From Patescibacteria group bacterium (GTDB lineage Bacteria > Patescibacteriota > Doudnabacteria > UBA920): a stretch of 64,000 nt of DNA. Of the stretch, positions 2,222-46,528 are shown piece by piece (within the stretch, counting starts at the first letter, position 1; every line of letters starts with the position of its first letter). The notes beneath the pieces are model-generated. The model saw only the letters and a list, made by a program, of their open reading frames with translations. It had not been told where the DNA came from and did no database searches. A program made the position numbers and the translations under genes. Where the stretch lies: positions 136 through 64,135 of the forward strand of contig WARV01000008.1 of assembly GCA_013387205.1 (NCBI GenBank), in the 5' to 3' direction.

Positions 2222-2806
2222 ATGGCTAATCTGAAAAAAATAGTTTTGGACTTAGAGACGCAAAAAGAATTCGCGGAGGTCGGGGGGCGGGGAAAAAACC
2301 ATTTGCTCAAAGTTTCCGTGTGCTGCATTTACGATTATTCGACAGGGAAGTATTCATCTTACGAAGAAGCGGAATTGCCAAAGCTGGCGCCGATCTTGCA
2401 AACCGCTGACCAGATAATAGGCTATAATATAAAAGATTTTGACTTCCAGGTTATCCAGCCATATTTGAATTTTGACATAAGCCAGGTGCCTTATTTGGAC
2501 TTGCTGGAAGAAATTGAAAAAACTTTGGGACACAGGATAAAACTAGAAGATGTCGCCCAGGCGACTTTAGGGACAGGCAAGTCAGGTTCTGGAAAAGAAG
2601 CATTGCTCTATTTTAAAAACGGGCGCATGGATTTGCTGAAAAAATATTGTCTGGATGACGTGAGAATAACCAAACAAGTTTACGAATACGGGCTTAAAAA
2701 CCAAAAATTGCTGTTCCGCGACTTCTTTAAAATGAAAGAAGTGACGGTAAAAATATCAGAGCCTGTTCCCAGGACCGGAGTAAAACATCAAGCAGCTTTA
2801 TTTTAG
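2222..2806 (+). CDS. DEDD-family 3'-5' exonuclease-like protein (RNase H-like fold)
   Basis: Motifs VLDLETQ (exo I), GYNIKDFDF (exo II), YCLDDVRITKQVY (exo III, YxxxD), consistent with DnaQ/DEDDy exonucleases. Confidence 0.6.
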   Translation: MANLKKIVLDLETQKEFAEVGGRGKNHLLKVSVCCIYDYSTGKYSSYEEAELPKLAPILQTADQIIGYNIKDFDFQVIQPYLNFDISQVPYLDLLEEIEKTLGHRIKLEDVAQATLGTGKSGSGKEALLYFKNGRMDLLKKYCLDDVRITKQVYEYGLKNQKLLFRDFFKMKEVTVKISEPVPRTGVKHQAALF

Positions 2807-2814
2807 CCTTGGCT

Positions 2815-3035
2815 AAAATAAATTGACCTAATTGCTCTAAATTATTATTAACTCATCCTGTCCTTCTCTTTAGCAAAGAGAAGGAACCAGCTTAGCAAGG
2901 CTATAATCTTTCTTAGCATGTTCTCCCTCTTTATCATGGAGACAGAGGGAGTTAGTATTAGAAATTAGAAATTGGGAATTGTTTAGTCCGCCAGCTGGCG
3001 GAAATTAGGTCAATTAGGTTAATTAGAAATTCGCA
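2815..3035. repeat. composite intergenic palindromic element: family A termini (aattgacctaattgctctaa ... ttaggtcaattaggttaattagaaat) enclosing family B core and a CCGCCAGCTGGCGG palindrome
   Basis: Family A 5' module at 2821-2840 and 3' module at 3005-3030. B core 2851-2952 with hairpins tccttctctttAGCaaagagaagga and ctccctct..agagggag. Same composite found inverted at 30005-30177. Confidence 0.7.
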
Positions 3036-3039
3036 GCCT

Positions 3040-3918
3040 ATGAAAAATAATCAGCAGATAATAATTGTTCTAGTGTTTTCTATTCTTTTGGCATTATTTC
3101 TGTCATCAGTCTTTTCAGGTAGAGTAATCCTTCCTCAATATTTTAGTTTGGGCCCTGTTACAATCAGGTATTATGGGATAACAATAGTGGTCGCTATTTT
3201 AGCGGCTTATTATTTGGCGATGAAACGCAGAATGGTTTACGGAATTGAAAATAAGGATGCGGAAAATATAATTTTTTGGACAATTATCGGGGGATTTCTC
3301 GGCGCGCGGGTGTATCACGTGTTTTCCAGTTTTGGTTTTTATTTACATCATCCTTTGCAAATTCTACAGGTCTGGAAAGGCGGCCTTTCAATTTACGGCG
3401 CTTTAATCGGCGGCGTAACCTCGATAATTATTTGCCATGAAATCTTAAATCTTAAATCTAAAATCTTAAATCTTTTTGACTGGCTCGCGCCATCCCTTCT
3501 ACTCGGCCAGATTATCGGCAGATTCGGTAATATGTTTAATTACGAAGCGTTCGGTTATCCAACGAATTTGCCTTGGAAAATGTTCGTGCCAATAGGCTTC
3601 AGACCGGAAAATTTATCTCAAAGCAACTATTTTCATCCTCTCTTTTTATACGAAGCTCTTGGTAATGCCATAATTTTGTTTTTCTTATTGAGATACGAAA
3701 AAAAGATGGGCCAAAGCGGTTACTTAGGGGCAAGGCCGGGACGGCTTTTCTTTATATATCTTTTATTGTATAATATATTAAGGTTTTGCCTGGAATTTTT
3801 AAGAGTGGACAGCACTTTTATTGGCATGTTCAGGTTGAATTCCATCACAAGCTTTGTTTTAGTATTAATATCTTTAGGCTTTTTACTTTTTAACCGACGC
3901 GATGCAAAAATATCATAA
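3040..3918 (+). CDS. lgt: prolipoprotein diacylglyceryl transferase
   Basis: Polytopic membrane protein with Lgt signature GGFLGARVYH ... GGLSIYGALIGG ... GRFGNMFNYEAFGYPTNLPW. Contains an in-frame atcttaa heptad repeat (3441-3472, LNLKSKILNL). Confidence 0.85.
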   Translation: MKNNQQIIIVLVFSILLALFLSSVFSGRVILPQYFSLGPVTIRYYGITIVVAILAAYYLAMKRRMVYGIENKDAENIIFWTIIGGFLGARVYHVFSSFGFYLHHPLQILQVWKGGLSIYGALIGGVTSIIICHEILNLKSKILNLFDWLAPSLLLGQIIGRFGNMFNYEAFGYPTNLPWKMFVPIGFRPENLSQSNYFHPLFLYEALGNAIILFFLLRYEKKMGQSGYLGARPGRLFFIYLLLYNILRFCLEFLRVDSTFIGMFRLNSITSFVLVLISLGFLLFNRRDAKIS

Positions 3919-8811: not shown

Positions 8812-9594
8812 ATGAAAGGGATAATTCTTTCCGGAGGGAGCGGCACCAGGCTTAGCCCGCTGACCAAAGTAACCAGCAAGCAGCTTTTGCCGGTTTATAA
8901 CAAACCGATGATTATGTATCCGGTAGAAACTCTGCTTAAGGCAGGTATTAAGGATATTTTAATCATCATTGCGCCGGACCACCCAGGCGATTACATGAAA
9001 CTGCTTGGAAGCGGCAAGGATTTTGGCGCCAGGTTTACGTATGAAATCCAGGACAAGCCGGAAGGGCTGGCGCAGGCTTTTTTAATTGGCGCGGATTTTA
9101 TCGACAACGACAGCGTGTGCATGATTTTAGGGGATAATATTTTTGAAGATGATTTTTCCGAAACCATCAGGAATTTCAAAAGCGGCGCGCACCTGTTCGC
9201 CAAGGAAGTTGAAGATCCGGAGCGTTTTGGAGTGGTAAAGTTTGACGAAAATATGAAGGCTGTGAAGATTGAGGAAAAACCGAAGGAATATTTGTCCAAC
9301 TATGCCATCACTGGCTTGTATTTATATGATAATCGCGTGGTAGAGGTTGCCGAGCAGGCCAAGCCTTCGGCTAGAGGCGAATTAGAAATTACGGAATTGC
9401 ACAATTGGTATTTAAAGCAGGGCGATATTAAAGTAGATATAGTCAATGGAGAATGGGTGGACGCAGGAACGTTTGAGTCTTTGTTTAAGGCAAACGAAAT
9501 CGCGAGAAAAAAACATTCTCTACTAAATACTAAAAGTACTAAATATACTAAAAATATCAAAGAATGCTTTAATGATATCATTGCTGGTGTATAG
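8812..9594 (+). CDS. rfbA: glucose-1-phosphate thymidylyltransferase
   Basis: MKGIILSGGSGTRLSPLT...KQLLPVYNKPMIMYPVETL, RmlA signature. Last ~25 codons are encoded by a family F repeat element. Confidence 0.9.
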   Translation: MKGIILSGGSGTRLSPLTKVTSKQLLPVYNKPMIMYPVETLLKAGIKDILIIIAPDHPGDYMKLLGSGKDFGARFTYEIQDKPEGLAQAFLIGADFIDNDSVCMILGDNIFEDDFSETIRNFKSGAHLFAKEVEDPERFGVVKFDENMKAVKIEEKPKEYLSNYAITGLYLYDNRVVEVAEQAKPSARGELEITELHNWYLKQGDIKVDIVNGEWVDAGTFESLFKANEIARKKHSLLNTKSTKYTKNIKECFNDIIAGV

Positions 9595-9633
9595 CTTTAG
9601 TATATTTAGTATTATTTCGTATTTAGTAGAAAA
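9521..9633. repeat. family F palindromic element (ctactaaatac...gtatttagtag), copy 1, overlapping rfbA 3' end
   Basis: About 75-80% identical by eye, in inverted orientation, to 53931-54045. Self-complementary termini. Confidence 0.6.
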
Positions 9634-9636
9634 TAT

Positions 9637-10581
9637 ATGACACTTAAAACTCAAAAAATTATATCAGCGGTAATGGTTGGCACGGCGGTTTTTGGCGGCT
9701 TTGAATTGCTTGCTGTGATTTTGAATTTAAACCAGGTTTCCATTTATTTGAATACGGCATTTTGGATTTATGGCTTTTTGCTTTTGTTCATGGCAATTTT
9801 ATTCGATCTGCATTTTAAAAATCCCGGCGCTTTGAAAAGGGCGATGCTCAGGCACGAAAACGTGCAGCATCGCCTGGTTAGGATGGCCAAAATAACCATA
9901 AGCGCTGTTTTTGACAGGGTGAGCCACATCCATACCTGGAAATACCTAAAGCGGCTTTTGGTGTCGTTTATAATTCCCGGCTTCGCCTACTGGGCGACCA
10001 TCGCGCTTTTATACGTGAATTTCGGCAACGTTAAACTGCAACAGGCGTTTATTCTGCTGTCATCTTTGGCGTTAATTGCCATCTATTGGTTTTTCAAAGA
10101 AACATTTTCCAGGCAGAAAGAAGTAGTCGATAGCGACATATTCGTAATCTCAACTGTCGTAAAAATTTATACGTCGGCAATTTTGTTCGCCGCGTCAATC
10201 TCTTTGGTAAGAAGATATTGCCTTGGCTCCGAGCTGCTCGTTTTAGGCACGTTCAGTTTTACTTTTTTGCTGATTTACCAGGCGCTTGTCCAGCACAAAA
10301 TGAATAGCTTTAAAAACATTTTAATTACCTTGGCGATATCTTTAATAATGGCCCATATTGGGTATTTTATTTTGGTTTACTGGGGGTTTAATTTTTATAC
10401 GGCAGCCGCATTTTGGACGGTCTGTTACAATTTGTTTTGGGGAATTTTCCACTATTATTTGGATAGGGCTTTGACCAAACTGGCTTTTTTTGAAATTTTG
10501 GCCGTTTCTTTGCTGATAGGATTCATGCTTTTTAATGTGACGAATTTTAAAGCCCAGTTGCTTGACGCTTGCGTATATTAG
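9637..10581 (+). CDS. hypothetical polytopic membrane protein
   Basis: 314-aa ORF, multiple TM helices, no motif recognised. Confidence 0.5.
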   Translation: MTLKTQKIISAVMVGTAVFGGFELLAVILNLNQVSIYLNTAFWIYGFLLLFMAILFDLHFKNPGALKRAMLRHENVQHRLVRMAKITISAVFDRVSHIHTWKYLKRLLVSFIIPGFAYWATIALLYVNFGNVKLQQAFILLSSLALIAIYWFFKETFSRQKEVVDSDIFVISTVVKIYTSAILFAASISLVRRYCLGSELLVLGTFSFTFLLIYQALVQHKMNSFKNILITLAISLIMAHIGYFILVYWGFNFYTAAAFWTVCYNLFWGIFHYYLDRALTKLAFFEILAVSLLIGFMLFNVTNFKAQLLDACVY

Positions 10582-11782: not shown

Positions 11783-11907
11783 TAGGGTATGTCATTATCA
11801 TTAATAGCGCTTTTAAGGTAATGGCGGCTTTCTCGCATTGGCCGACCAATGGCCAAAATGCTTGTTTGGCCTTATTCATAAGGTATTTTAGCATTTATCC
11901 TATGCTC

Positions 11908-13434: not shown

Positions 13435-13440
13435 AATAGA

Positions 13441-13583
13441 ATTGACCTAATTAACCTAATTATTTCTAATTATTCTAAATAAATCCTAATGACTAAACCC
13501 CAAAATCTGGTCGTAATTGGGTATTGGGACTTAGACATTATTTAGGTCAATTAGAGTAATTAGAATAATTAGGTTAATTCTTT
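13441..13583. repeat. family A palindromic intergenic element
   Basis: aattgacctaattaacctaattatttctaatt ... ttaggtcaattagagtaattagaataattaggttaatt. Confidence 0.7.
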
Positions 13584-15413: not shown

Positions 15414-15570
15414 GTCATTGCGAGCGATTTAAGGTCCGCCAGCTGGCGGATTGGCTTAAATTGCGTGGCAATCTAAGCAGGGAAAGATTACTTCCCCCTT
15501 CGCTAAAGCTACGTCGGACAAGTCGGATGCCCCAAAGGAGCCTCTTTGAGGCACTCCTCCTCGCAATGAC
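15414..15570. repeat. family C element (GTCATTGCGAG ... CTCGCAATGAC terminal inverted repeats) carrying a CCGCCAGCTGGCGG palindrome
   Basis: gtcattgcgag at 15414, ctcgcaatgac ending 15570, internal tcggatgccccaaaggagcctctttgaggcactcc module shared with 23296-23358. Confidence 0.7.
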
Positions 15571-19936: not shown

Positions 19937-20237
19937 ATGGTATTTTAATCTCCCTTAATCCCTCCTTTGAATAGGAGGGAAACTCTGCAGATCTCTCCCG
20001 TGTCTTAGGAGAGGTTAGGTGAGGGTATTATAAGAAATTTAAACGGCTAAATCCTAGGAAATCTACGATTTTGCCGTTTATTTTTATGTGCATCTGGATC
20101 CCGGATAACCCATCGGATGCTCTTCGGGATTCCGGGATGGGACGGTGGTGTAAAAGATGGTCATTGACAATAATTACTATCTGAACTTTGACGTTCTTAA
20201 TGAATTATGAGAAAATTATTTATACCAACAAAATAAA

Positions 20238-23295: not shown

Positions 23296-23491
23296 TGATA
23301 AGATTGCTTCGGTCGGATGCCCCAAAGGGGCCTCTTTGAGGCACTCCCTCGCAATGACATTGCTTGTTTGCTGTCATTGCGAACCCTGATATTTTATAGC
23401 TTTTAAATATCATGGTGAAGCAATCTGTTTAAGAGATTCTTCGCTACGCTCAGAATGACGCCTGAGGAGTAGTGGATTCGCTCGCAATGAC
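23296..23491. repeat. family C elements: one 3' half-copy (23296-23358) plus one full copy (23374-23491)
   Basis: ctcgcaatgac at 23348-23358 and 23481-23491, gtcattgcga at 23374. Internal gaagcaatctgtt..aagagattcttcg hairpin as in the 51322 copy. Confidence 0.7.
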
Positions 23492-23658
23492 GATAAAAAT
23501 TCGCATTAAAACATCAATTATGATATAATAATGGAAACTAATTTACCCCGCACACCAATTTTCACCAGGTTTTGATATATATCAAGACTAATTATAATCG
23601 GTGAGTATTCAATACGCACGATATTAAATGGTAATTGGTGTGGGGTCAAGACAAAAAT

Positions 23659-24393
23659 ATGAAAAAATTATCCGTGGTTATTCCCGCCTATAACGAAGAG
23701 CAACGCATTGCCAAAACTTTGCTTGCCGTAGGCGAATATTTATCGAAACAAAATTACGATTACGAGATTTTGGTGGTTAATGATGGCTCAAAAGACAACA
23801 CCGCAGGAGTTGTCAGGGCGCAGATGGATAAAATAAAAAACCTGCATTTAATTGACCATCATGAAAATCATGGCAAAGGCTGGGTGACAAAAGACGGCAT
23901 GCTGCATGCAAACGGCGATGTACGCGTATTTTTGGATGCGGATAATTCCACCAAAATTGATGAAATTGGCAAAATGCTGCCATTTTTCGACCAGGGTTTT
24001 GATATTGTGGTCGGCTCCAGGCGCATAGAAGGTTCGCATTTAGATGTTAAGCAGAATTTTCTCAGGGATACTTTGGGCGGAATTTTCAGGCTGATTGTGC
24101 ATACCGTGGTACCAGTCGGCGTCACTGATACCCAATGCGGCTTTAAGGCTTTTTCCGCAAAATCAACCGAAGCCATTTTTCCCAAACAGACAATTTTCCG
24201 CTGGGCTTTTGACGTAGAGATTCTGGCTTTAGCCAGAAAGCAGGGTTTTAAAATAAAAGAAGCACCGGTTACTTGGGTTAACGACGGAGCCAGCCATGTT
24301 AAGCTCTCCGGAATGATTAAAATGCTTTTGGAAATAATACAGATCCGATTTAATTTGTGGTGCGGAAAATACAATAGTAATGACAAAAATTAA
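23659..24393 (+). CDS. GT2-family polyprenyl-phosphate glycosyltransferase (DPM-synthase/GtrB-like)
   Basis: KLSVVIPAYNEEQRIAKTL ... ILVVNDGSKDNT ... FLDADNS. Stop lies within a family D element. Confidence 0.85.
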   Translation: MKKLSVVIPAYNEEQRIAKTLLAVGEYLSKQNYDYEILVVNDGSKDNTAGVVRAQMDKIKNLHLIDHHENHGKGWVTKDGMLHANGDVRVFLDADNSTKIDEIGKMLPFFDQGFDIVVGSRRIEGSHLDVKQNFLRDTLGGIFRLIVHTVVPVGVTDTQCGFKAFSAKSTEAIFPKQTIFRWAFDVEILALARKQGFKIKEAPVTWVNDGASHVKLSGMIKMLLEIIQIRFNLWCGKYNSNDKN

Positions 24394-24470
24394 AAAAATG
24401 ACAAGATTGACATAAATAATCTGCAGTTAATATTTTGTCATTTCCGTCGTTTTTGTCATTTTTGTCAATA
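24380..24470. repeat. family D (TGACA-rich) palindromic element
   Basis: aatgacaaaaattaaaaaaatgacaagattgacataaataat ... ttttgtcatttccgtcgtttttgtcatttttgtcaat, near-identical to 36145-36233. Confidence 0.6.
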
Positions 24471-24478: not shown

Positions 24479-26344
24479 GTGGAAAAAGAAATAAGGAAAA
24501 AATCTAGACACAAATATCAGGCATTGCTGTCGATAGTATCGATTGGTTTTTTTGTCTTGTCTGTTTTTCCTTTAGCTGCATCGGCAAGTTCTCCGTCACC
24601 GAAAGATTATATAATCAAGTTGTCCTCAAATGCCAATCCAAAAGTGTTGGATTACGTGGCAGACAAAACACAGCGGCTTTTTGAGTTTTCGTATGATGAT
24701 AATTTTAAGAATATATACGCGCTAAAATCGCCTTTTGCCAAAAGCGAAATTGAAAAAGAATTAAATGGCCAGTTTGAATATCTGGAAGAAGAAAAGCCGT
24801 TGAACGTTGCGGATGTTTATGTCAACGATCCCGGATTTACATCCCGCGCAGAAGACACGGACAAGCAATGGGGACTTGCCAAAACCGGATTCAACCAGGT
24901 TTGGGAAAAAACAACGGGGTCGTATAACAACATTGTTGCGGTAATTGATACCGGCATAGACGAAACTCACGAAGATTTGCAGGCAATAAATTTTGTTGAA
25001 GGTTTTGATTTTGTCAGCCGCCAGAAAATAACCGGACGGGTCAATTCCGACAATAACGGGCATGGCACGCTGGTTGCCGGAGTTTTGGGCGCCACTGCCA
25101 ATAACGGGCTCGGCATAACCGGGACCAACTGGATGACAAGCTTGATGCCTCTTAAAGCTTTAGATGACCGCGGCAAGGGCGAATCGGCTTTGATTTCCGA
25201 AGCGATTGTCTGGGCAGTAGATAACGGCGCAAAATTCATAAATTTAAGCGTGGGCGGGGTCGGATTCGGGCACGATACGACATTGGCCAACGCAATTTCT
25301 TACGCGTTCGAAAAAGGCGCGGTAATCGTTTCCGCAGCCGGCAATGATACTTCGTCGCAAGGCATTAGCCTCGACGACGAGCCGGTTTACCCGATTTGCG
25401 ACGACAACAACCAGAATATGGTAATTGGCGTGACAGCTACTGACAGCAATGATTTAAAACCGGAATTCGCGAACTACGGGAAAAATTGCATAGACGTTGC
25501 CGCACCAGGAAAAAGGATCCTTTCTACCATCAATTACGACCCTTTAACCAAAAAGCCGGCGCCGAATTCATACGCATACGCTTCCGGAACTTCTTTGGCC
25601 GTGCCTTTCGTGGTCGGCCAGGCTGCTTTGATAAAATCTTTGCATCCGGAATTTACCAACGTGCAAATTCGGGACAAAATCCTCTCCACGGCCGACCCGA
25701 TAGATAATTTGAACATAAGCCAATGCAAGGGGGTGTCCTGTAAAGGAATGCTTGGCGCGGGCCGGATTAACGTCAAAAAAAGTTTGGAAAGCCAGACTGT
25801 GGCAATTGCGTTAAACGAGGGAGATTTAGTTAAAATGGATAGTAATAATGCCGTGTATCAGATTTCCGGCGGGCAAAAAAGGCTGGTATCGACTTTTGTC
25901 CTAAACCAGCAGTTTTCCAATGCCTATATTAAGCCTGTGACGCCAGACGCGCTGGCTAACATGCCGGATGGCCCTTATGTCACGCCAAAAGACGGCACGC
26001 TGGTGAAAATCGAGAATAACCCGACTGTTTTTTATATGTCCAAAGGACAAAAGCTTCCTATTACTTACAACGTATTCAAGCAAAGGCAGTTGAGTTTTTC
26101 GAATATTAACACGGTCAGCTTTTCAGAATTGAATTCATGGGTCACTGGATCTTTTTTGCCGCCTTCAGAAGGCACGCTGGTGAAAACTGCCAGGAATAAA
26201 ACAGTGTATTGGGTAGTGGGGGATGCGCTGCATGCGATTAATTATGCTTTTTACGTGCAAAAAGGTTTAAATATCTTTCCGGTATTGGTCTTGCCGGATA
26301 AAGACATAGCCGGATTTCCAAAAGGAGAAACGTATTTAAGATAA
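24479..26344 (+). CDS. subtilisin-like serine protease (S8) with N-terminal propeptide and C-terminal ~58-aa repeats
   Basis: Catalytic triad contexts VIDTGID, HGTLVAGV, GTSLAVP. C-terminal repeats (GTLVKIENNPTVFYMSKGQKLPI...) shared with the next gene. Confidence 0.9.
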   Translation: MEKEIRKKSRHKYQALLSIVSIGFFVLSVFPLAASASSPSPKDYIIKLSSNANPKVLDYVADKTQRLFEFSYDDNFKNIYALKSPFAKSEIEKELNGQFEYLEEEKPLNVADVYVNDPGFTSRAEDTDKQWGLAKTGFNQVWEKTTGSYNNIVAVIDTGIDETHEDLQAINFVEGFDFVSRQKITGRVNSDNNGHGTLVAGVLGATANNGLGITGTNWMTSLMPLKALDDRGKGESALISEAIVWAVDNGAKFINLSVGGVGFGHDTTLANAISYAFEKGAVIVSAAGNDTSSQGISLDDEPVYPICDDNNQNMVIGVTATDSNDLKPEFANYGKNCIDVAAPGKRILSTINYDPLTKKPAPNSYAYASGTSLAVPFVVGQAALIKSLHPEFTNVQIRDKILSTADPIDNLNISQCKGVSCKGMLGAGRINVKKSLESQTVAIALNEGDLVKMDSNNAVYQISGGQKRLVSTFVLNQQFSNAYIKPVTPDALANMPDGPYVTPKDGTLVKIENNPTVFYMSKGQKLPITYNVFKQRQLSFSNINTVSFSELNSWVTGSFLPPSEGTLVKTARNKTVYWVVGDALHAINYAFYVQKGLNIFPVLVLPDKDIAGFPKGETYLR

Positions 26345-26490
26345 ATTAACCTAATTATTCTAATTGCTCTAATTGACCCCGTGTCAGGCACGGGGCAGGC
26401 TCTAAATAAATCACAATACCCAAATCCAAAATTAAAAATTAGGTATTAGGATTTGATTAGACTAATTAGGTCAATTAGGTTAATTAGAAA
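26345..26490. repeat. family A palindromic element (contains ccccgtgtcaggcacgggg hairpin)
   Basis: aattaacctaattattctaattgctctaattgacc ... ttaggtcaattaggttaattagaaat. 3' module abuts the start codon of the next gene exactly as at 3005-3039. Confidence 0.7.
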
Positions 26491-26500
26491 TTTGCAGTCT

Positions 26501-28354
26501 ATGAAAACACAAAAATTATTTTTAGCGGCATTAATAACTATTTTACTCGCGCAGCCTATACTGTCTTTGGCTCAAGGCATTGAAACTGGGTTTGACCCGA
26601 ATAAGATTATTGACGACAAGATATTTTCCGATACCCAGACTTTCGGCGGGCCGGAAGGCGTACAGAAATTTTTGGAAGTTAAGGGCTCGATTCTTGCCAA
26701 TACCAGTCCGGATTTCATCGCCAAATTAAAAGAGCCGGACATAACCATGCTTAAGCAAGGACTGGAAGATCCAAGGCCTAATTTGGGGCGGATGAGGACG
26801 GCAGCCGAGCTTATTTGGGACGCGTCCATACAAAGCGGCCTTAACCCGCAGGTAATCATTGTGACTTTAAACAAAGAGCAGAGCCTTATTACCGGCCATC
26901 AGGATTCTTCTCCGGACAAAATGCAGAAAGCTTTGGATAGGGCCATGGGTTTTGATTGCCCGGACGCGACCGGGTGCGGTAATTTGTTTCCCGGGTTTTA
27001 TTACCAATTATTCGGCAATTTCGACTCAGACGGCAACCGCTATTTGGGCGCTGCCAAATCTTTAATGAAATCTTTCAATACTGACGGCGGCCGCGGCCCG
27101 CAAATTGACGGGCATATATCCAGAGTCGGGGATGTTGTTACTTTAGATAACACCATGGGCGGGTTTGACGGCGTGTCACCCAGCCAGACAATTACAATAA
27201 TGAACCGGGCTACCGCAGCTTTATACCGTTTTACTCCGCACGTGTTTAACGGCAATTATAATTTTTGGAGATTTTTTAATTCCTGGTTCAGGTACCCGAA
27301 CGGCACGCTTTTGTCTTTGGCAGGGGATATAAAAACTTATATCATCCAAAACGGCACCAAGCAGCTGGTTCCGGATTTTGTGGCCAAGGCGCGCAATTTG
27401 AACTTGGCATCGAAAATCACCATCTCGCCTAACGAATACGACAGCTATCCGACAGATAAAGTGTTCGGGCCGAAAGACGACACTATTGTAAAAACTACAG
27501 ATAACAGTAAGACTTACGTGTTTATTAATAATATAAAGCACCCGGCATCAAGTTTTGTAATTTCGCAGAGGGGACTTAATCCAACCCAGGCTTTGGAAGT
27601 TTCAAGCAGCGAAGCTTCGTTGTTCGATACTGGAAATGTTTTGCCGCCAAAAGACGGGACAATTATCCGAGGAGTAACTAATCCGGCAATATATTTGGTT
27701 GATGGCGGCAGGATAAAACTTTTCAGCGAGTATACTTTCAAGCAGAGAAAGATTGCAGCCAAACAGGTTACGCCAGTGCCCGATGATGAAATTACTACGT
27801 ATGAAAAACAGGGTTTTGTGCCGCCGCTCGACAACACTTTAATCAAGTCAACGGATAAAGGGACTGTATATTTGGTTGATAAAGGCTTAAAGCGGCCGGT
27901 GACCGCGGAGTTATTCAAAAACCGCGGGTTTAAAGTTAAAGATGTAGTCAGCTTGAGTCCGGACGAAGTTACGTCTTTGACGGTCGGTGCTTACGCCACG
28001 CCTAAAGATAAAACATTCTTTAAAGTTGCCGAGACCGGCCAGCTGTATATGTTTAAGGAAGGAAGCAAACATCCGATTTCCAGTTTTGTAGCTAAGCAGC
28101 GCGGTATAACTCCAGATTACACTTTTGGCCAGAGCATGGCTTACGAATGGTATGATGGTATTTCAATTCCGCCGAAAGATAACACTTTGGTTAAAGGCGC
28201 TAAAGACGGTACAGTATATTTAGTCAGTAAAGGACAGTTAAGACCGCTCACAGCCAAAGCGTTCAAGGCGAGGAAGTATAACATAAAAAACATCAAGACT
28301 TTGCCCCAAGACGAAGTTGACGCGTATGCGAAAGGGGATGTGGTAAATAAGTAA
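26501..28354 (+). CDS. secreted protein with six tandem ~58-aa repeats (PPKDGTxVK...TVYLVxxGxKRPI motif)
   Basis: Signal peptide MKTQKLFLAALITILLAQPILSLAQG. Repeats PPKDGTIIRGVTNPAIYLVDGGRIKLF / PPLDNTLIKSTDKGTVYLVDKGLKRPV / PPKDNTLVKGAKDGTVYLVSKGQLRPL etc. Track ORF start 26453 lies inside the repeat element. Confidence 0.75.
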   Translation: MKTQKLFLAALITILLAQPILSLAQGIETGFDPNKIIDDKIFSDTQTFGGPEGVQKFLEVKGSILANTSPDFIAKLKEPDITMLKQGLEDPRPNLGRMRTAAELIWDASIQSGLNPQVIIVTLNKEQSLITGHQDSSPDKMQKALDRAMGFDCPDATGCGNLFPGFYYQLFGNFDSDGNRYLGAAKSLMKSFNTDGGRGPQIDGHISRVGDVVTLDNTMGGFDGVSPSQTITIMNRATAALYRFTPHVFNGNYNFWRFFNSWFRYPNGTLLSLAGDIKTYIIQNGTKQLVPDFVAKARNLNLASKITISPNEYDSYPTDKVFGPKDDTIVKTTDNSKTYVFINNIKHPASSFVISQRGLNPTQALEVSSSEASLFDTGNVLPPKDGTIIRGVTNPAIYLVDGGRIKLFSEYTFKQRKIAAKQVTPVPDDEITTYEKQGFVPPLDNTLIKSTDKGTVYLVDKGLKRPVTAELFKNRGFKVKDVVSLSPDEVTSLTVGAYATPKDKTFFKVAETGQLYMFKEGSKHPISSFVAKQRGITPDYTFGQSMAYEWYDGISIPPKDNTLVKGAKDGTVYLVSKGQLRPLTAKAFKARKYNIKNIKTLPQDEVDAYAKGDVVNK

Positions 28355-28560: not shown

Positions 28561-30015
28561 ATGAGCAAGGCTGTATCAAAAAACATATTTTGGCTGTCGT
28601 TGTCCAGGGTTTTTGCCATGGTGCTGCTGTTTTTGGCGTATCGAAATCTTTTTAGATACTTGGGACCGTATAATTCCGGACAATACCAGTTTATTCTTTC
28701 GTACGTGCTGATGTTTTCCACTGTGGTGGATTTTGGCATCCAGCAGTTCATTATAAAAAAGATGAGCGAAAAGCCGGAAGAGACGGAGAATTATTTCCGG
28801 CAATTTTTAGCCTTTGAGTCCGCAGTTTCATTTTTTCTCTACGCGCTATTAATATCTATTGCATATTTCCGGCATTTCGACCCTCAGGTCTTACAAGGCA
28901 TTGCCTTGGCTGGCCTTGGTATGGTCGCTAATGCTTTAACTTATCCGTTTTTGTCTGTAATGAGCGCGAGACAAGACTTGCGCAAAGTTGCCTTTATAAA
29001 TTTTTTAAACTCCCTGGTAAATGTCAGTGTGATTGCCCTGGCAATTATTTTCCATAAAGGGATTGTATTCTTGGCCAGCATCCAGCTGATTTTTGGTTTA
29101 CTGGATTTGGCTTTATACAGGGTTTTTGTTTTAAAGCATTTGCCTGCGCCTAAAGTATTATCTTCCTTAAAGCATATTCATTTTGAGCTAATTTGGAGCA
29201 TTATCAATAATGCCTGGCCGTTTGTTTTGCTGGTGGGTTTTAGCGCGATTTACAACCGCATAGACGTGGTCATTTTGACTTTTTTAAAAGGCTACCAGGA
29301 AACCGGATATTACACGGCCGCTTATAAGATTTACGATTTGCTTGGTTTTTTCCCGTCCGTAGTTTCGTTTACATTGTTCCCGTTTTTTACTGGCTTGATG
29401 GCGAAAAATGCCATACTCGAAATAAAAGACAGTTTGGAAAAATATACAAGATTAATGTTGATGTTCGCGCTTCCAATGGCCGTAGGCGGCACTATTTTGG
29501 CACAGAAATTAATTATTTTGGTAACCGCGTCGCGGGAATTTTTGCCCGGCGCGCAAGCTTTGGCGATTTTAATTTGGGCGCCAGCTCTGCTGTTTATTTA
29601 TATTCCGGTGAACTCTTTGGTGATATCGCAGTTAACCAGGAAAGCGTTAATTATTACCGGAACTAATGTGGTTGTTAATATTGTGGGAAATTTGCTGTTA
29701 ATTCCGCGTTTTGGCATTCAGGCTGCGGCGGTTATGACTGTTTTAAGCGAAAGCTTGCAGGGAATTTTTTATTTTTATTTTGTCAGGAAAAATATTACAG
29801 ATTTCAAATTTTGGGGCTCGGTTTTTAAACCCGCGTTTGCGGCTTTGGTGATGGGCTTGGTATTGTGGCCGATAAGGGATATGAGTTTGTTGATTACTTT
29901 GGCGGCAGGCGCAGCGGTTTATATGGCAATGCTAACGATCACCAGGTTCATAGGGAAAGATGATATTGTGGTGATAAAAGGGTTATTCAGAAGAGAGAGC
30001 GGGGAATTGACCTAA
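28561..30015 (+). CDS. Wzx-like oligosaccharide flippase / polysaccharide biosynthesis protein (MOP superfamily)
   Basis: 484 aa, about 12-14 TM helices, N-terminal pattern typical of Polysacc_synt family. Confidence 0.75.
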   Translation: MSKAVSKNIFWLSLSRVFAMVLLFLAYRNLFRYLGPYNSGQYQFILSYVLMFSTVVDFGIQQFIIKKMSEKPEETENYFRQFLAFESAVSFFLYALLISIAYFRHFDPQVLQGIALAGLGMVANALTYPFLSVMSARQDLRKVAFINFLNSLVNVSVIALAIIFHKGIVFLASIQLIFGLLDLALYRVFVLKHLPAPKVLSSLKHIHFELIWSIINNAWPFVLLVGFSAIYNRIDVVILTFLKGYQETGYYTAAYKIYDLLGFFPSVVSFTLFPFFTGLMAKNAILEIKDSLEKYTRLMLMFALPMAVGGTILAQKLIILVTASREFLPGAQALAILIWAPALLFIYIPVNSLVISQLTRKALIITGTNVVVNIVGNLLLIPRFGIQAAAVMTVLSESLQGIFYFYFVRKNITDFKFWGSVFKPAFAALVMGLVLWPIRDMSLLITLAAGAAVYMAMLTITRFIGKDDIVVIKGLFRRESGELT

Positions 30016-30177
30016 TTGCTCTAATTACTAACTCCCTCTGTCTCCCTCTTTAGTAAAGAGGGAGAACCTGCCAAGAAAGGTTAGCTGATTGATAACAATC
30101 AGGTCTTCCTTAGTTTGTTCCTTCTCTTTGCTAAAGAGAAGGACAGGATGAGTTCTGGGTAGGTTAATTAGAAATTT
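30005..30177. repeat. composite family A/B element, inverted copy of 2815-3035
   Basis: rc of 30031-30152 aligns with 2851-2952 (actcatcctgtccttctctttagcaaagagaagga ... gagacagagggagt). A termini at 30005-30026 and 30161-30177. Confidence 0.7.
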
Positions 30178-30208
30178 TCCAAAAAGTGTGTTATAATTTA
30201 ATTAATAT

Positions 30209-30667: not shown

Positions 30668-31768
30668 ATGAAGATTGGAATTGAAGCAGAAAGGGCTAAT
30701 CTTGGCCAGAAGACCGGGGTTGAGCATTATGCCAAGCAGCTCATTCTGCACCTAGCCGAAATAGACCAAAAAAACCAATATATTTTATATTTGCGAACCA
30801 AACCGGAAAGCTGGTTTTTGAATTTGCCAAAAAACTTTTCTATAAAAGTAATGCCGTTTCCGATTTTCTGGACGCAGGTCAGGCTGTCTTTGGAAATGGT
30901 TTTTAATCCGGTTGATGTTTTATTTATTCCAGCTTCCGCGCTGCCTTTGTTACACCCGAAAAACAGCGTTGTGACAATCCATGATTTAGCCTGGCTGTTT
31001 TATCCGGATACTTTTACCTGGTTTAACCGCAGCTTCTTAAAATGGTCGACAAAATTTGCAACCAGGAATGCGAGAAAAATAATTGCGGTTTCTGAGGCGA
31101 CTAAGAATGATTTGGTTAAATATTATCGCGTAGATGATAAAAAGGTTGGTGTAGTGCATCATGGGTATGAGAATAACAATTACGGATTACGGATTACGGA
31201 TTACGGATTAAAATCGCCACTACCGGAAAAATTTATTTTATTTTTATCGACCTTACAACCAAGGAAGAATTTGGAAGGGCTGATTGACGCTTTTAAGGAA
31301 TTAAAACAGGAAAATCCGGAATTGCCGCACAGGCTGGTGGTGGTCGGCAGACTCGGGTGGAAATTTGAAAGTATTTTAAAGAAGATTGATGAAAATAAGG
31401 ATTTGGTTGCTTATTTAAACCATGTATCAGACGAAGACCGTTTGGCGATTATGCGCAAAGCCGATTTATTAGTTTTGCCAAGTTTCTATGAAGGTTTCGG
31501 CATGCAGATTTTGGAAGCGTTTGACGCAAAAGTGCCGGTTGCCGCATCAAAAGTTTCCAGCATGCCGGAAGTGGCGGGGGAAGCTGCTGTTTATTTTGAT
31601 CCTCATGATACAAAAGAGATAAAAAACGCCATTAAGTGTGTTTTGTTGGACAAGTCCATGTCAGACTGCTTAAAAGACTTGGGGCAAAAGAGGCTTGAAA
31701 GTTTCAGCTGGAATAAGTGTGCAAAAGAAACCCTGGAAGTAATGACAAAATTGACGGAAATGACATAA
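30668..31768 (+). CDS. GT4-family glycosyltransferase
   Basis: Start MKIGIEAERANL. C-terminal LPSFYEGFGMQILEAFDAKVPV (GT4 E-x7-E region). In-frame ttacgga x4 heptad repeat at 31189-31216 (LRITDY). 3' end inside a family D element. Confidence 0.85.
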   Translation: MKIGIEAERANLGQKTGVEHYAKQLILHLAEIDQKNQYILYLRTKPESWFLNLPKNFSIKVMPFPIFWTQVRLSLEMVFNPVDVLFIPASALPLLHPKNSVVTIHDLAWLFYPDTFTWFNRSFLKWSTKFATRNARKIIAVSEATKNDLVKYYRVDDKKVGVVHHGYENNNYGLRITDYGLKSPLPEKFILFLSTLQPRKNLEGLIDAFKELKQENPELPHRLVVVGRLGWKFESILKKIDENKDLVAYLNHVSDEDRLAIMRKADLLVLPSFYEGFGMQILEAFDAKVPVAASKVSSMPEVAGEAAVYFDPHDTKEIKNAIKCVLLDKSMSDCLKDLGQKRLESFSWNKCAKETLEVMTKLTEMT

Positions 31769-31895
31769 ATTAACCTTCATACAGGCGTCATTCCGAGTGC
31801 AGCCGAGGAATCTCCTTTTGTAGTTTAAGAGATCCTTCGCTCGGATGCACTCGCTCAGGATGACGCCGGAGCGTCATTTTTGTCATTTATTTAAT
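31741..31895. repeat. family D element with a family C-like element nested inside
   Basis: aatgacaaaattgacggaaatgacataaatt ... [gtcattccgagtgcagccgagg...gctcaggatgacgccggagcgtca] ... tttttgtcatttatttaa. Confidence 0.55.
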
Positions 31896-31906
31896 TTTTT
31901 TAATTT

Positions 31907-33520
31907 TTGCTCATTGTATTTATGTTTTTAACTGACGAAAATAAAATATTTTCCTGGCCAAAAGCCGCCATGTCATTATTATACGTATGGCAGGCGCTTA
32001 CCATATTGCTTGTGATTTTTGGAATACTGCAGCCTTGGGCTGTCTGGATTGTCCTGATTTTAGGGCTTTTATATATCGCAATTTTCCCGGAATTCTATTC
32101 TTTGATGTTCCTGATTGTTTCTATCCCATTTTATCTGGCAATACCGAACCAGCGTTTTGACACGCTTTCAATTTGGAGAATTTGGTTTGCATTTATTTTT
32201 CTTGTTTGGTTTTTCAGGTTTACTATCAGGTTTTACCGAAAAGAGAAAAAGATTAACCTAAGAAAAATATGGTCAGAAATTTACTTTATGCCTTGGGATA
32301 AGGCATTGGGCTTGTTTTTCTTTATTGCGGTTATTTTGGTCCCGTTTTCTAAATTTGCCGTACCAAGCCTTAAGCAGCTAATGTTTATTTTGAATGCTTA
32401 TTTTATATATGTAGTTTTGGTAAATACCATAAAAACAAAAGAGCAGATAATCAGCGCGGTCAGGTTCGCAATAATTTCTTTAGGCACCATTGTGCTTGTA
32501 GGTTACATCCAGCTCATTTCGACATTTTTCACCAGCTTTGATACGTTTTGGGTTTACTGGGCCAGCTTCATTTCAAAGTTATATTACGGCCAAAACCTGG
32601 CAAGCGTTTTGTTATATTCCAACTCCTGGTTTTCTTATAATGGCGCCAGGGAATTGCGCATGTTCAGCATAATGCCGGATTCGCATTCTTTCGCGGTCAT
32701 CTCGGTATTTTTAATTTCATTCCTTTTGTCCTTAACTTATTTTTACGCGAAAAGGGACAGGTATATGCTTTGGACCGTTGTCAGGACAACCGGTCTTGCG
32801 GTAATCCTTTCCGGCACGCGCGGCGTGTGGGCCGGCATGGCCGCTCCTTTTTTGGCGACGATTTTCATGATAACAAAAAATTATTTCAGGCCTATCGCGG
32901 AAAAGATTTTTTGGTCTTTGGCTATGATCCTTTTGTTTTTTGCTATGGCCCCGGCATTTAACAAAGCATTTGATTTTATGCGCGTTAGGAGCTTTAAGGA
33001 AAACTTTTTGGACCGGGCCAAGACAATGTATGACGTCAGCGAGGATTCCAATCAGGCCAGAATAGAAATTTGGAAGCACAGTATCAGATACGCGGTCAGC
33101 CATCCTGTGGGCGTGGGTTTTGGCAATTTCTTAGTCTCAATATCAAGCGATACAAACCAAAAGACATTTTCGGAACTGAGCCAGGTTAATAACAAGCGAT
33201 ACAACCTTCCCCAAAAATACGTTACAGCGCATAATTTATATCTAAACGTTTTAGTCGAATTGGGGGTTTTTGGCTTAGCGGCATTCTTGTGGTTCTGGTG
33301 GAAATATTTTAAAACAGTTTGGGATTTTATGGTGAGATTCCGCGACCAGGATAATTTTTATATGTTTTTCGTAATAGTTTCCGCGCTGACTTTTTTGTGG
33401 CTTTTGGCGTATGGCCTGTTTGACGTAACACTATTTAATGACAAAGTCTTAATGTATAGTTTCATCAGTTTGGGGCTTTCTGGGATTATCATAACTAGGT
33501 ACCGCGATTTGAAAAAATGA
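31907..33520 (+). CDS. O-antigen ligase/polymerase-like (Wzy_C family) membrane protein
   Basis: About 12 TM helices with periplasmic-loop region TGLAVILSGTRGVWAGMAAPFLATIF typical of O-antigen ligase family. Confidence 0.6.
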   Translation: MLIVFMFLTDENKIFSWPKAAMSLLYVWQALTILLVIFGILQPWAVWIVLILGLLYIAIFPEFYSLMFLIVSIPFYLAIPNQRFDTLSIWRIWFAFIFLVWFFRFTIRFYRKEKKINLRKIWSEIYFMPWDKALGLFFFIAVILVPFSKFAVPSLKQLMFILNAYFIYVVLVNTIKTKEQIISAVRFAIISLGTIVLVGYIQLISTFFTSFDTFWVYWASFISKLYYGQNLASVLLYSNSWFSYNGARELRMFSIMPDSHSFAVISVFLISFLLSLTYFYAKRDRYMLWTVVRTTGLAVILSGTRGVWAGMAAPFLATIFMITKNYFRPIAEKIFWSLAMILLFFAMAPAFNKAFDFMRVRSFKENFLDRAKTMYDVSEDSNQARIEIWKHSIRYAVSHPVGVGFGNFLVSISSDTNQKTFSELSQVNNKRYNLPQKYVTAHNLYLNVLVELGVFGLAAFLWFWWKYFKTVWDFMVRFRDQDNFYMFFVIVSALTFLWLLAYGLFDVTLFNDKVLMYSFISLGLSGIIITRYRDLKK

Positions 33521-33530
33521 CATCCTCAAA

Positions 33531-33580
33531 TGTCATTCCGGGAGCTACAAGCGTAGCGAGGGCTACCCGGAATCTACGCT
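33531..33580. repeat. family C-like short element
   Basis: gtcattccgggagctacaagcgtagcgagggctacccggaatctacgc. Confidence 0.4.
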
Positions 33581-35210: not shown

Positions 35211-36143
35211 ATGGATATATCAATAATTATCCTTTCCTACAAATCCAAAGAGCATTTGAAGGTGCTTTTGCCGAGTATTAAGCAGCAAACCGGCATCTGT
35301 TGGGACGGCTCCGGTGATGGATATAGCGGCGAAGTAATTATTGTCGACAACGGTTCGAACGACGGCACGGTTGAATGGGTTGAAGATCAGATTGATAAAT
35401 TACGGATTACGGATTACGAATTGAATGTTAACGAATCCGCAATCCGCAATCCGCAATTGTGTTTAATTAAAAATACTAATTCCGGTTTTGCGGCTGGAAA
35501 TAACATCGGCATAAAAAAAGCCGCGGGCAGGCATATCTTAATTTTAAATCCTGACACGAAATTGGAACCGGATACGCTGGAAACCATGCTTGATTTTATG
35601 GAAAAGCGGCAAGATGTCGGAATTAGCGGATGCAAACTTATCAAAGCTGACGGAAAATTGGATTTAGCATGCAGAAGAAGATTTCCAAACCCTTGGAACA
35701 GTTTTTCGCGGTTGTTTTTGAAAAATAATACCAATTACAATTACAGCGATATAGATGAAAACCAGGAAATGGAAGTTGATAGCGTGGTCGGCGCTTTTAT
35801 GCTTGTCAGAAAATCGGTGATTGATAAAATCGGGCTTTTGGATGAAACATTTTTTATGTATGGCGAAGATTTGGATTGGTGCTGGCGCTGCAAGGAAGCT
35901 GGTTTTAAGGTTTGGTATCATCCGAAAACTTTTATTTACCATTACAAAGGCGAATCATCAAAAAAAATTCCTTTTAAGGCTTTAAAGTGGTTTCATGACG
36001 CCATGTGGACTTTTTACAGTAAGCATTACGCAAAAAAGTATCCGTTTTTCTTTAATTGGATAGTTTGGGCGGGGATTTATTTAAGGATGTTGGTTTTAAT
36101 AGTAATCAATTTACCCAGGAAAGAGGCAAGGGTAAGCAAATAG
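35211..36143 (+). CDS. GT2-family glycosyltransferase
   Basis: MDISIIILSYKSKEHL ... VIIVDNGSNDGT ... YGEDLDWCWR. In-frame palindromic heptad insert 35400-35460 (LRITDY...AIRNPQL). Confidence 0.85.
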   Translation: MDISIIILSYKSKEHLKVLLPSIKQQTGICWDGSGDGYSGEVIIVDNGSNDGTVEWVEDQIDKLRITDYELNVNESAIRNPQLCLIKNTNSGFAAGNNIGIKKAAGRHILILNPDTKLEPDTLETMLDFMEKRQDVGISGCKLIKADGKLDLACRRRFPNPWNSFSRLFLKNNTNYNYSDIDENQEMEVDSVVGAFMLVRKSVIDKIGLLDETFFMYGEDLDWCWRCKEAGFKVWYHPKTFIYHYKGESSKKIPFKALKWFHDAMWTFYSKHYAKKYPFFFNWIVWAGIYLRMLVLIVINLPRKEARVSK

Positions 36144-36144
36144 A

Positions 36145-36233
36145 AATGACAAAAATTAAAAAAATGACAGAATTGACATAAATAATTGGCCCAATAATTT
36201 TGTCATTTACGTCGTTTTTGTCATTTTTGTCAA
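36145..36233. repeat. family D (TGACA-rich) palindromic element
   Basis: aaatgacaaaaattaaaaaaatgacagaattgacataaataat ... tttgtcatttacgtcgtttttgtcatttttgtcaat. Confidence 0.6.
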
Positions 36234-36289
36234 TGTGATTATTTTTGTGGTATTATTAAATTAATTATTATTATCTTCTTACTTTAATT

Positions 36290-37549: not shown

Positions 37550-37648
37550 ATTAACCTAATTATTCTAAACAAATCCCAATTCCTAATTTCTAAAATTAGA
37601 CATTATTTAGAATAATTAGAGCAATTAGAATAATTAGGAATAATTATA
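37550..37648. repeat. family A palindromic element
   Basis: aattaacctaattattctaaac ... ttagaataattagagcaattagaataattagg. Confidence 0.65.
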
Positions 37649-39441: not shown

Positions 39442-39489
39442 TTTATAGTTTGTAGTAAGTAGTTTATAGAAAATAAAACAAAATAATCA

Positions 39490-40726: not shown

Positions 40727-40748
40727 CTTTAAAGCTTAATCGTCTTGA

Positions 40749-40840
40749 TTGACAAAATTGTCATAATTTAAAAAATTGACACAAATATTACTGCAGTTTA
40801 TTTATGTCAATTTTGTCATTTTTTTATTTTTGTCATTTCA
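40749..40840. repeat. family D (TGACA-rich) palindromic element
   Basis: gacaaaattgtcataattt ... ttatgtcaattttgtcatttttttatttttgtcattt. Confidence 0.55.
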
Positions 40841-43374: not shown

Positions 43375-43764
43375 ATGGCACGTATCGCAGGGATAAACAT
43401 TCCTAACGAAAAAAGAATAGAAGCTGCTTTGCCGGTTATATACGGGATAGGCTTTACTCTGTCCAAAAAGATTTTGGCGGCGACCAATGTGGATCCGAAT
43501 AAGAGAACCAAGGACTTGTCGGAAGAAGAACTGAACAGGATCCGCGAATACATTGAAAAAAACTTCAAAGTAGAAGGCGAGTTAAGGCAGCAGATTTTAT
43601 TGAACATCAAGAGGCTTAAAGAAATCAGCGCTTACCGCGGGATAAGGCATATTAGAGGTTTGCCGGTCCGCGGCCAAAGGACAAAAACCAACTCCAGAAC
43701 CAGAAGGGGTAATGTCCGTAAAACTGCCGGAAGCGGCCGTAAAGCAGCTTCAGAAAAAACATAA
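43375..43764 (+). CDS. rpsM: 30S ribosomal protein S13
   Basis: [26 protein letters not shown] ... [20 protein letters not shown]. Confidence 0.95.
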
Positions 43765-43765
43765 C

Positions 43766-43871: not shown

Positions 43872-43880
43872 TATTACATT

Positions 43881-46526: not shown

Positions 46527-46528
46527 CA

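Follow-up and report, generated by a model that had tools for sequence, protein, structure and literature searches.

Family-A palindromic hairpins of a Candidatus Doudnabacteria genome as probable gene-less copies of an IVS-like selfish element of CPR

MITEs and the Correia/NEMIS, ERIC, BOX and REP/BIME repeats are short, gene-less, multi-copy, intergenic hairpin elements. The REP/BIME repeats are imperfect palindromes of 20–40 nt with a 5' GTAG head and are linked to a RAYT transposase, and the Correia elements of Neisseria are repeats that supply promoters. The SDR/STRR repeats of Nostoc/Anabaena, reportedly described by Elhai et al. in 2008, are said to be tiny palindromes nested in hairpins made of short tandem words, intergenic and without target duplications; we know of no association of these repeats with a PF05635 gene. 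The PF05635 proteins ('23S rRNA IVS proteins') are, to our knowledge, four-helix bundles without a known catalytic function, are not known transposases and have been assigned no function in 30 years.

The intervening sequence (IVS) in the 23S rRNA of Coxiella burnetii is a 428-nt selfish element whose inverted repeats at the ends pair into a 28-bp stem cut by RNase III; the loop contains an S23p (PF05635-type) ORF, which tandem heptamers of varying number precede, and IVSs have been proposed to transpose (PMC4990558). PF05635 is a family related to Avd, an accessory protein of diversity-generating retroelements (DGRs; PMC10053308). Another arrangement of short words, the TIGR arrays, consists of two alternating repeats of 8–12 nt with 9-nt spacers, which yield 36-nt RNAs, run head to tail and lie beside a Tas (Nop-domain) gene (PMC12045711).

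The elements analyzed here, denoted family A, were delineated in the window, i.e. the whole 64-kb stretch of DNA under analysis, which comes from a Candidatus Doudnabacteria genome (CPR). The full-length form of family A resembles the rRNA IVSs with an S23p ORF (Coxiella burnetii, Leptospira; PMC4990558) in size (~430–480 nt), in the long stem formed by terminal repeats, in the PF05635-type loop ORF that is in sense to host transcription and in the variable tandem words preceding this ORF, and both kinds of elements also come as gene-less hairpins. Unlike the rRNA IVSs, family A lies between protein-coding genes, has arms whose 9-nt words include a variable triplet, and is present in many copies per genome and in many CPR phyla. 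With the MITE-type repeats, family A shares a nested, mosaic structure, co-transcription within operons and presence that varies between relatives; unlike MITEs, it shows no detected target-site duplication and its full-length form encodes no known transposase, and its arms are modular word arrays, with a consensus shared across phyla, rather than one fixed inverted repeat. Unlike REP/BIME, the word arrays are AT-rich and lack a GTAG head; unlike Correia elements, no TA duplication or promoter is seen; and the SDR/STRR repeats belong to another phylum and consist of other words.

Avd and the product of the gene in the full-length form share a four-helix-bundle fold family, but neither a reverse transcriptase nor a template or variable repeat was found beside the A-type genes, the arms enclosing a small ORF only, and a weak match to PF22296 (bAvd) belongs to a classic-subfamily gene (L224), not to an A-type gene. 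The TIGR arrays occur in CPR (and also in phages) and, like family A, place 9-nt variable units between short conserved repeats. A TIGR-Tas array was nevertheless rejected as an identification: each family-A word joins a 6-nt core to a variable part of 3 nt, the arrays are paired in inverted orientation, and a Pfam search of 20 ORFs of the window revealed no Nop-domain (Tas) gene.

Anatomy of the family-A copies in the window

All five family-A copies claimed by the first-pass annotation are present in the window, with refined boundaries. The copies are non-coding and 98–211 nt long, amounting to 5 per 64 kb; in other MAGs, several copies per genome are found as well. A long hairpin is predicted for 5 of the 5 copies (z-scores of -4.0 to -8.1 compared with shuffled sequences), its stem being formed by the terminal inverted repeats. 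A tblastn search for the PF05635 gene recovered no ORF in any of the five. The copies and the parts of the two composite ones are as follows.

2821–3031, unstranded: family-A copy 1, composite; predicted RNA fold of -66.4 kcal/mol, z -4.0
2821–2845, forward strand: left arm of copy 1; the 9-nt words AATTGACCT and AATTGCTCT, then AAAT
2850–2953, unstranded: B core of copy 1; nested palindrome with its own inverted ends, AACTCATCCTGTCC...GGAGACAGAGGGAGTT
2954–2986, forward strand: right-hand inner part of copy 1; TTAGAAA words plus ATTGGGAATTGTTTAG
2987–3002, unstranded: nested GC mini-hairpin TCCGCCAGCTGGCGGA, between right-arm words of copy 1
3003–3031, forward strand: right arm of copy 1; AATTAGGTC AATTAGGTT AATTAGAAATT, ending 8 nt before the lgt ATG
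13440–13579, unstranded: family-A copy 2, simple; predicted fold of -49.8 kcal/mol, z -8.1
26344–26493, unstranded: family-A copy 3; predicted fold with z -7.2
30005–30178, unstranded: family-A copy 4, composite; predicted fold of -68.2 kcal/mol, z -5.8
30030–30154, unstranded: second copy of the B core, in family-A copy 4; inverted relative to the B core of copy 1
37549–37646, unstranded: family-A copy 5; predicted fold with z -5.1

Copy 1 occupies the spacer between the stop codon of an RNase_H_2-like gene (2806) and the ATG of lgt (3040), and copy 2 lies directly past a sortase-domain gene (stop at 13434). The TAA of an S8 peptidase gene is overlapped by the left arm of copy 3, the right arm of which stops 7 nt short of the ATG at 26501. 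In copy 4, the left arm contains the stop codon of a MurJ-like gene (30013–30015), and only AGGTTAATTAGAAATTTT is left of the right arm. Copy 5 makes up the entire spacer between the genes for an S41 peptidase and AlaRS (stop at 37549, ATG at 37651).

The arms are built of tandem 9-nt words, NNNCTAATT on the left and AATTAGNNN on the right, each word combining a 6-nt core with a 3-nt variable part and the arrays being arranged in inverted pairs. A second inverted repeat within the arms, CTAAATAAATCCCAAT...ATTGGGATTTATTTAG, flanks a variable apex; in copy 1, ATTGGGAATTGTTTAG is the counterpart of ATTGGGATTTATTTAG. In the window, the arm motif TTAGGTCAATTAGG has 8 matches with up to two mismatches (0.48 expected), AATTRACCTAATTRNTCTAA has 6 exact matches (0.00 expected) and CCTAATTNNYCTAATT has 7 (0.01 expected). 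Adenine-specific (DGR-type) mutagenesis was considered as the source of the variable triplets and dropped because the invariant word positions include adenines as well.

The apexes and arms of some copies hold further palindromes. The B core of copy 1 comprises two pyrimidine/purine hairpins, CCTTCTCTTT-AGC-AAAGAGAAGG and CTCCCTCT...AGAGGGAG, and the one at 30030–30154 has an additional central hairpin, GCTGATTGATAACAATCAGGTC. That the two composite copies enclose the same core in opposite orientations, as had been proposed, is borne out by the inverted pairs 2850–2899/30105–30154 (92% identity over 50 nt) and 2904–2956/30031–30083 (75% over 53 nt); blastn confirmed this pairing of the cores, and the flanking arms have the same orientation in both copies. 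Outside the window, the B core was found at none of 222 other loci. The GC mini-hairpin TCCGCCAGCTGGCGGA has 4 copies in the window (0.02 expected), and another nested GC hairpin, CCCCGTGTCAGGCACGGGG, lies within copy 3 at 26377–26395. The B core and the GC mini-hairpins are probably later invaders at or near the apex of gene-less family-A copies.

Nearly all the other spacers in the window contain a hairpin of the same design that is made of different short words. Among these words are TTGACAAAA, CCGAAT, TACTAAATA and CTACAGAT, and the autocorrelation of the intergenic DNA peaks at a lag of 9 nt. In the window, the only Rfam match at the gathering score is RNase P RNA, with nothing credible at 2700–3100 up to an E-value of 1, and a tRNA scan was negative.

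Distribution, turnover and the full-length form

In an arm-pattern scan of one genome per species, family-A arms were detected at 118 or more loci in many CPR phylum-level groups, namely, Saccharibacteria, Roizman-, Ames-, Levyi-, Shapiro-, Curtiss-, Gottesman-, Yanofsky-, Zambryski-, Staskawicz-, Azam-, Uhr-, Magasanik-, Doudna-, Berkel- and Peregrinibacteria; these loci were ascertained by a pattern derived from the arms, which inflates the similarity among the elements. The sequence AATTRACCTAATTRNTCTAA is a simple marker of the arms, and most of the matches listed in a scan of the genome collection are labelled CPR or Patescibacteria. Carriage by phages was rejected: the 20 matches in viral contigs are coincidences inside coding sequences, without partner arms. 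A full-text literature search found no published description of these CPR elements.

A more tolerant detector, applied to 1.07 Mb, yielded 78 paired elements, whose arms likewise form a long stem, and 126 single arrays (290 arrays in the real sequence compared with 37 in the reversed sequence). None of the 78 paired elements lies inside an ORF, i.e. all are intergenic. With genes called crudely as the longest ORFs, the median distance is 8 nt from the stop codon to the arm and 16 nt from the arm to the start codon, and the median element covers 77% of its spacer. No target-site duplication was detected, the longest word shared by the flanks averaging 4.58 nt within pairs and 4.50 nt between pairs, a comparison that duplications of 2–3 nt in the AT-rich ends could escape.

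The history of individual spacers could be followed in five syntenic relatives (L119, L121, L222, L223 and L224), which were reached via homologues of the window AlaRS (gene at 37651–39441; 78–82% protein identity). The nearest named homologues of this AlaRS come from Candidatus Doudnabacteria. The window, L121 and L222 have an A element in the spacer between the S41 peptidase and AlaRS genes; in the remaining three genomes, this spacer is reduced to 42 nt (L119), contains a different word family (L223) or is filled with other repeats and a SET-domain gene (L224). Downstream of PGI, an A element is present in L223 and a hairpin of TTGACA words in the window and in L224. The left-arm words of L222, TAGTTTGTAG, recur without a gene at 39442–39475 of the window, in the orthologous AlaRS–PGI spacer. 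In L119, word hairpins are absent and all the orthologous sites compared are plain short spacers, of only 1–31 nt in the ribosomal protein operon. The window and L121, for comparison, have A elements at the same two orthologous spacers. Thus, insertions are polymorphic at orthologous spacers among the six syntenic Doudnabacteria (the window and the five relatives), and the plain spacers of L119, together with the differing word families at orthologous sites, imply that the elements are dispensable and turn over at fixed spacers. The family-A elements are very probably mobile.

At 7 of the loci from the arm-pattern scan (of at least 118), the arms are ~400 nt apart and surround exactly one ORF, which matches PF05635 in all 7 cases. 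In 6 of these, the PF05635 score is above the gathering threshold (E-values from 1e-9 to 2e-12); the exception, L079, has a truncated copy of 83 aa that scores below it (E 7e-5). The ORF is 119–129 aa long in six loci and also matches TIGR02436 ('four helix bundle protein') and PDB 2rld; it is the only ORF of the full-length element, which encodes no transposase. The six full-length four-helix-bundle (4HB) proteins come from distant CPR groups and share 54–78% identity with the L004 protein. They gave no match to the defence systems in PADLOC.

The full-length element is ~480 nt long and consists of a left arm of 2–5 tandem 9-nt words NNNCTAATT, the inner repeat CTAAAxAATGxCCAAT, which holds the start codon, the gene, the partner repeat ATTGGGATTTATTTAG and the AATTAGNNN words of the right arm. 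The ATG of the 4HB gene follows the last left word by ~10 nt and belongs to the inner repeat (CTAAAAAATGACCAAT, with the partner CTAAATAAATCCCAAT). Both halves of the inner repeat are kept in the gene-less copies. Having the arms and the inner repeat in common with the ~480-nt element, the gene-less copies look like its internal-deletion derivatives, in the manner of MITEs.

The association between gene and arms extends to metagenomes, where at least 569 relatives of the 4HB protein are found. Among the 71 metagenome loci with readable flanks, two or more CTAATT words are present upstream of the gene in 66, two or more AATTAG words downstream in 60, and both in 57. In 58 of 63 cases, the 4HB gene points in the same direction as the gene upstream of it, compared with a baseline of 77% (p = 0.0025), whereas co-orientation with the downstream neighbour is at the baseline. 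The excess upstream suggests dependence on host read-through transcription. Within the flanks of 20 full-length loci, there is no rRNA, and the copies in the window similarly sit between protein-coding genes rather than in a 23S rRNA helix.

Neither the 64-kb window nor any of the five syntenic relatives yielded a full-length copy, and the PF05635 proteins of these relatives all belong to other subfamilies. Other PF05635 genes (in L222, L224, L194/L180 and L069) are also located between inverted arrays of short words of their own, such as those listed below.

L224: PF05635 gene flanked by TAGCTTATAG.../...CTATAAGCTA
L194 and L180: PF05635 genes flanked by CTAACAC.../...GTTAGAT
L069: PF05635 gene flanked by ...AACTT.../...AAGTTAC

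At a further locus, L153, the arms are mixed: the right one is made of A words, the left one of other words.

Preferred reading and its alternatives

Family A probably consists of MITE-like copies, devoid of the gene, of a selfish palindrome that occurs throughout CPR and is akin to the IVSs, although settled outside rRNA. Such elements would settle in short spacers, from stop codon to start codon, and would be passively co-transcribed with the host operon. The hairpin would rejoin the upstream stop codon with the downstream start codon and, with the two brought together, insertion would be nearly neutral in an operon that lacks Shine-Dalgarno sites, much as it would be for an IVS that extends an rRNA helix, or for the B core and the GC hairpins that form hairpins within hairpins. 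By analogy with the stems of rRNA IVSs, the 25–35-bp AU-rich stem may be cut by RNase III; genes for RNase III are present in the A-bearing CPR loci L030 and L039. The similarity of the arms would be maintained by recognition of the words, perhaps by the 4HB protein, rather than by selection for pairing.

Of the alternatives, the one that fares best, albeit still unlikely, holds that the 4HB gene is an entity distinct from the A hairpins, one that inserts into hairpin apexes and has family A as its commonest host. The A apexes indeed accept foreign palindromes, as demonstrated by the B core in both orientations and by the GC hairpins at 2987 and 26377, and the mixed arms of L153 would fit this scheme. 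However, the junction between the arm and the gene is fixed, with the ATG ~10 nt past the last word and embedded in the inner repeat, and A words precede the gene in nearly all loci of this subfamily (the 66 of 71 above), whereas the other PF05635 subfamilies have word families of their own.

Even less likely, in our estimate, is a host-selected RNA device, be it a terminator, an mRNA stabilizer, an RNase III site or a clamp for translational coupling, the spread of which would reflect its function. The predicted hairpins are strong (z from -4 to -8) and span precisely the interval from stop codon to start codon; with Shine-Dalgarno sites nearly absent, the joining of the two could matter; and the shared positions in the window and L121 would be expected of a retained function. 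The conservation pattern, however, points the other way. There is no covariation between the arms of an element: their complementarity to each other is no higher than that to the arms of other genomes, and the answer is the same in a control where a pattern-bearing arm was compared only with an arm lacking the pattern. Given that complementarity is no higher within than between elements, what is conserved is the consensus rather than the pairing. Neither a bias in folding between the sense and antisense strands (31 and 30 elements, respectively) nor an enrichment of G:U pairs on the sense strand (230 compared with 205 pairs) is detectable. No terminator-like GC stem followed by a T-run was found in the elements, divergent spacers are occupied as well, and the dispensability of the hairpins in L119 and their replacement by other word families in other relatives is hard to reconcile with a selected device. 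There is no evidence of selection on the pairing itself or on the sense-strand RNA.

The conservation of words rather than pairing across phyla, together with the regular 9-nt period and the dyad arrangement, could also be expected if the AATTAG word arrays were DNA sites for a conserved CPR protein involved in nucleoid organization, replication or transcription. This explanation appears improbable, ranking behind both of the preceding ones: the arrays are patchy among close relatives, unrelated word families replace them at the same spacer, and the tight linkage to one small gene family is better accounted for by an element-encoded partner than by a host factor. Integron attC sites, DNA uptake sequences and iterons were also considered and dropped, in view of the housekeeping flanks, the coexistence of several word families per genome and the dispersed copies.

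The reading of family A as gene-less copies of a selfish element also accommodates a feature of copies 1 and 3, a 3' module abutting two start codons, which was taken in the first-pass annotation as a potential mobile promoter or leader of genes for envelope or secreted proteins. The shared module is real: 3003–3046 and 26464–26507 are 95% identical over 44 nt, both ending in ATGAAAA. The arm ends 7–8 nt before two ATGs, and both products are membrane or secreted proteins, one encoded by lgt (3040–3918; PF01790, E 1e-61) and the other, from 26501, a protein with internal repeats that starts with MKTQKLFLAALITILLAQPILSLAQG, has a signal-peptide-like beginning and gave no Pfam match. Judged by its sequence, the module before these two genes constitutes the right arm's outer end (...AATTAGAAATT), followed by 7 nt and the common Met-Lys start; the same terminus, AATTAGAAATT, recurs in other phyla as part of the family consensus. 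The absence of a Shine-Dalgarno sequence after the module is unremarkable because such a site precedes only ~6 of 50 genes of the window.

A role tied to envelope genes finds no counterpart in the flanks of the other elements. Copy 5 abuts the AlaRS gene (37651), and the genes next to A elements in other genomes include those for ribosomal proteins, GatA/GatB, GluRS and ClpP, cytoplasmic housekeeping genes being downstream in most loci. An association with signal-peptide genes did not hold: a hydrophobic (signal or transmembrane) N-terminus is predicted for the products of 11 of 58 genes abutting A elements, compared with 143 of 910 in the background (p = 0.46). The spacers occupied by A elements are co-directional, divergent or convergent in 61, 7 and 5 cases, against 77, 12 and 11% in the background (p = 0.36), so that the elements, convergent spacers included, show no preference for positions upstream of genes.

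As for promoter activity, the TTGACC in the arms resembles a -35 hexamer, and the Correia elements are a precedent for promoters carried by repeats, but the TTGACC of each arm faces the interior of the element, away from the flanking gene, and the start region would be sequestered in the predicted stem. No sigma-70 match in the module is usable for lgt, the sole match (3024–3051, 9 of 12 positions) having its -10 hexamer inside lgt, and clear promoters are located outside the elements (TTGTCA-17-TATAAT at 2158–2186 and TGTGTTATAAT near 30190). Thus, of the original proposal, the composite, palindromic, nested and very probably mobile nature of the elements stands, whereas a right-arm module that drives or tunes envelope or secreted-protein genes is the least probable of the explanations considered, and highly improbable in itself.

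Implications for CPR genomes and the PF05635 family

A tentative extension of the preferred reading, which we consider possible but put at well below even, is that PF05635 proteins are element-encoded partners of a distinct class of palindromic mobile elements, with the arm words as their binding sites and one word family per protein subfamily. Such elements would spread via helix apexes and tiny spacers, where a hairpin is neutral, and the rRNA IVSs and the word hairpins of CPR would be one phenomenon.

The genomes of CPR, of ~1 Mb, are regarded as streamlined. In the window, a large share of the intergenic DNA consists of hairpins of this kind. Should family A and the sister word families prove to be selfish elements of the IVS type, many intergenic regions of CPR would be parasites rather than regulatory DNA, which matters for genome annotation and promoter prediction, and the long AU-rich stems between cistrons would predict widespread processing of CPR operon transcripts by RNase III. 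The same premise would provide a plausible non-rRNA source population for the rRNA intervening sequences and would give the PF05635 family a concrete, testable role.

Further word hairpins and repeats

Besides family A, the palindromic elements with arms of CTAATT / AATTAG words, the window contains the following hairpins and repeats.

24373-24470, 31741-31770 with 31873-31914, 36139-36252, 40745-40838 and 46019-46065: second hairpin family, words TTGACAAAA / TTTTGTCAA
43043-43140, 43762-43875, 46524-46622 and 50635-50735: third hairpin family, in spacers of the r-protein operon, words ATCCGAAT / ATTCGGAT
9520-9645 and 53909-54040: TACTAAATA word-hairpin family, two loci, 77-86% complementary
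2049-2153: CTACAGATAT palindrome with arms of 46 nt, upstream of the gene at 2222
15420-15560, 23312-23500, 31790-31870 and 33530-33580: further repeat type, ends GTCATTGCGAG / CTCGCAATGAC or GTCATTCCG
19950-20035: double hairpin, stems CCCTCCTTT...AGGAGGG and TCTCTCC...GGAGAGG
2987, 15435, 28486 and 43788: GC mini-hairpin TCCGCCAGCTGGCGGA, 16 nt each, four copies nested within other elements

The apex of the second family is frequently CTGCAG, and the same family also occupies the orthologous spacer downstream of PGI in the syntenic Doudnabacteria relative L224 (13420-13540). The r-protein operon spacers that accommodate the third family carry different word families in the relatives, namely AAAGTTNTA in L121 and L223, and CAAATGTCA in L224. 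Immediately 3' of a CCGAAT hairpin lies a short ORF for rpmJ (L36; 43140-43253), a region counted as spacer in the ORF list of the window. A 36-nt block, GTCGGATGCCCCAAAGGRGCCTCTTTGAGGCACTCC, is common to the repeats at 15522 and 23312 (97% identical). The stems of the double hairpin at 19950-20035 represent anti-SD-like versus SD-like strings, and in style this structure resembles the B core, the double-hairpin palindrome nested in two family A copies. In L121, variants of the GC mini-hairpin have a duplicated word on either side (CTAATT|..|CTAATT, AATTAG|..|AATTAG); flanked in this way, the hairpin resembles a tiny mobile unit.

Translation starts and RNase P RNA

Across the start regions of the whole window, a Shine-Dalgarno (SD)-like sequence is found upstream of only about 6 of 50 genes, the gene at 13718 (AGGAGG) being a clear exception; translation initiation here must be largely SD-independent. 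The strand of the RNase P RNA is opposite to that of nearly all genes in the window.

48790-49115, minus strand: bacterial class A RNase P RNA (108 bits)

The AlaRS-PGI spacer and the PF05635 genes

Across five relatives (L119, L121, L222, L223 and L224), the spacer between AlaRS and PGI forms a hotspot where the small genes vary: they comprise NUDIX, an ORF of 340 aa, two PF05635 genes and an ORF of 158 aa. The window has only repeats there.

39442-39475: TAGTTTGTAG-type words, directly 3' of AlaRS

In L222, a classic PF05635 gene stands at the orthologous spot, and its left arm (11798-11836) matches these words, which are probably the leftover of a lost element.

Outside CPR, an unusually long array, a one-sided run of over 15 tandem AATTGAYCT words, is present at about 400-600 of L042 (MAG QMOL01000022.1, labelled Chlamydiae), with no partner arm visible for it; another match, L082, is labelled Woesearchaeota.

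PF05635 genes of other subfamilies have inverted arrays on both sides.

L194, 1163-1516: PF05635 gene
L180, 3172-3525: PF05635 gene
L069, 1267-1575: PF05635 gene
L224, 11851-12216: PF05635 gene

Each lies between arrays with their own 7-9-nt words, which suggests that protein subfamilies and word families generally go together in PF05635.
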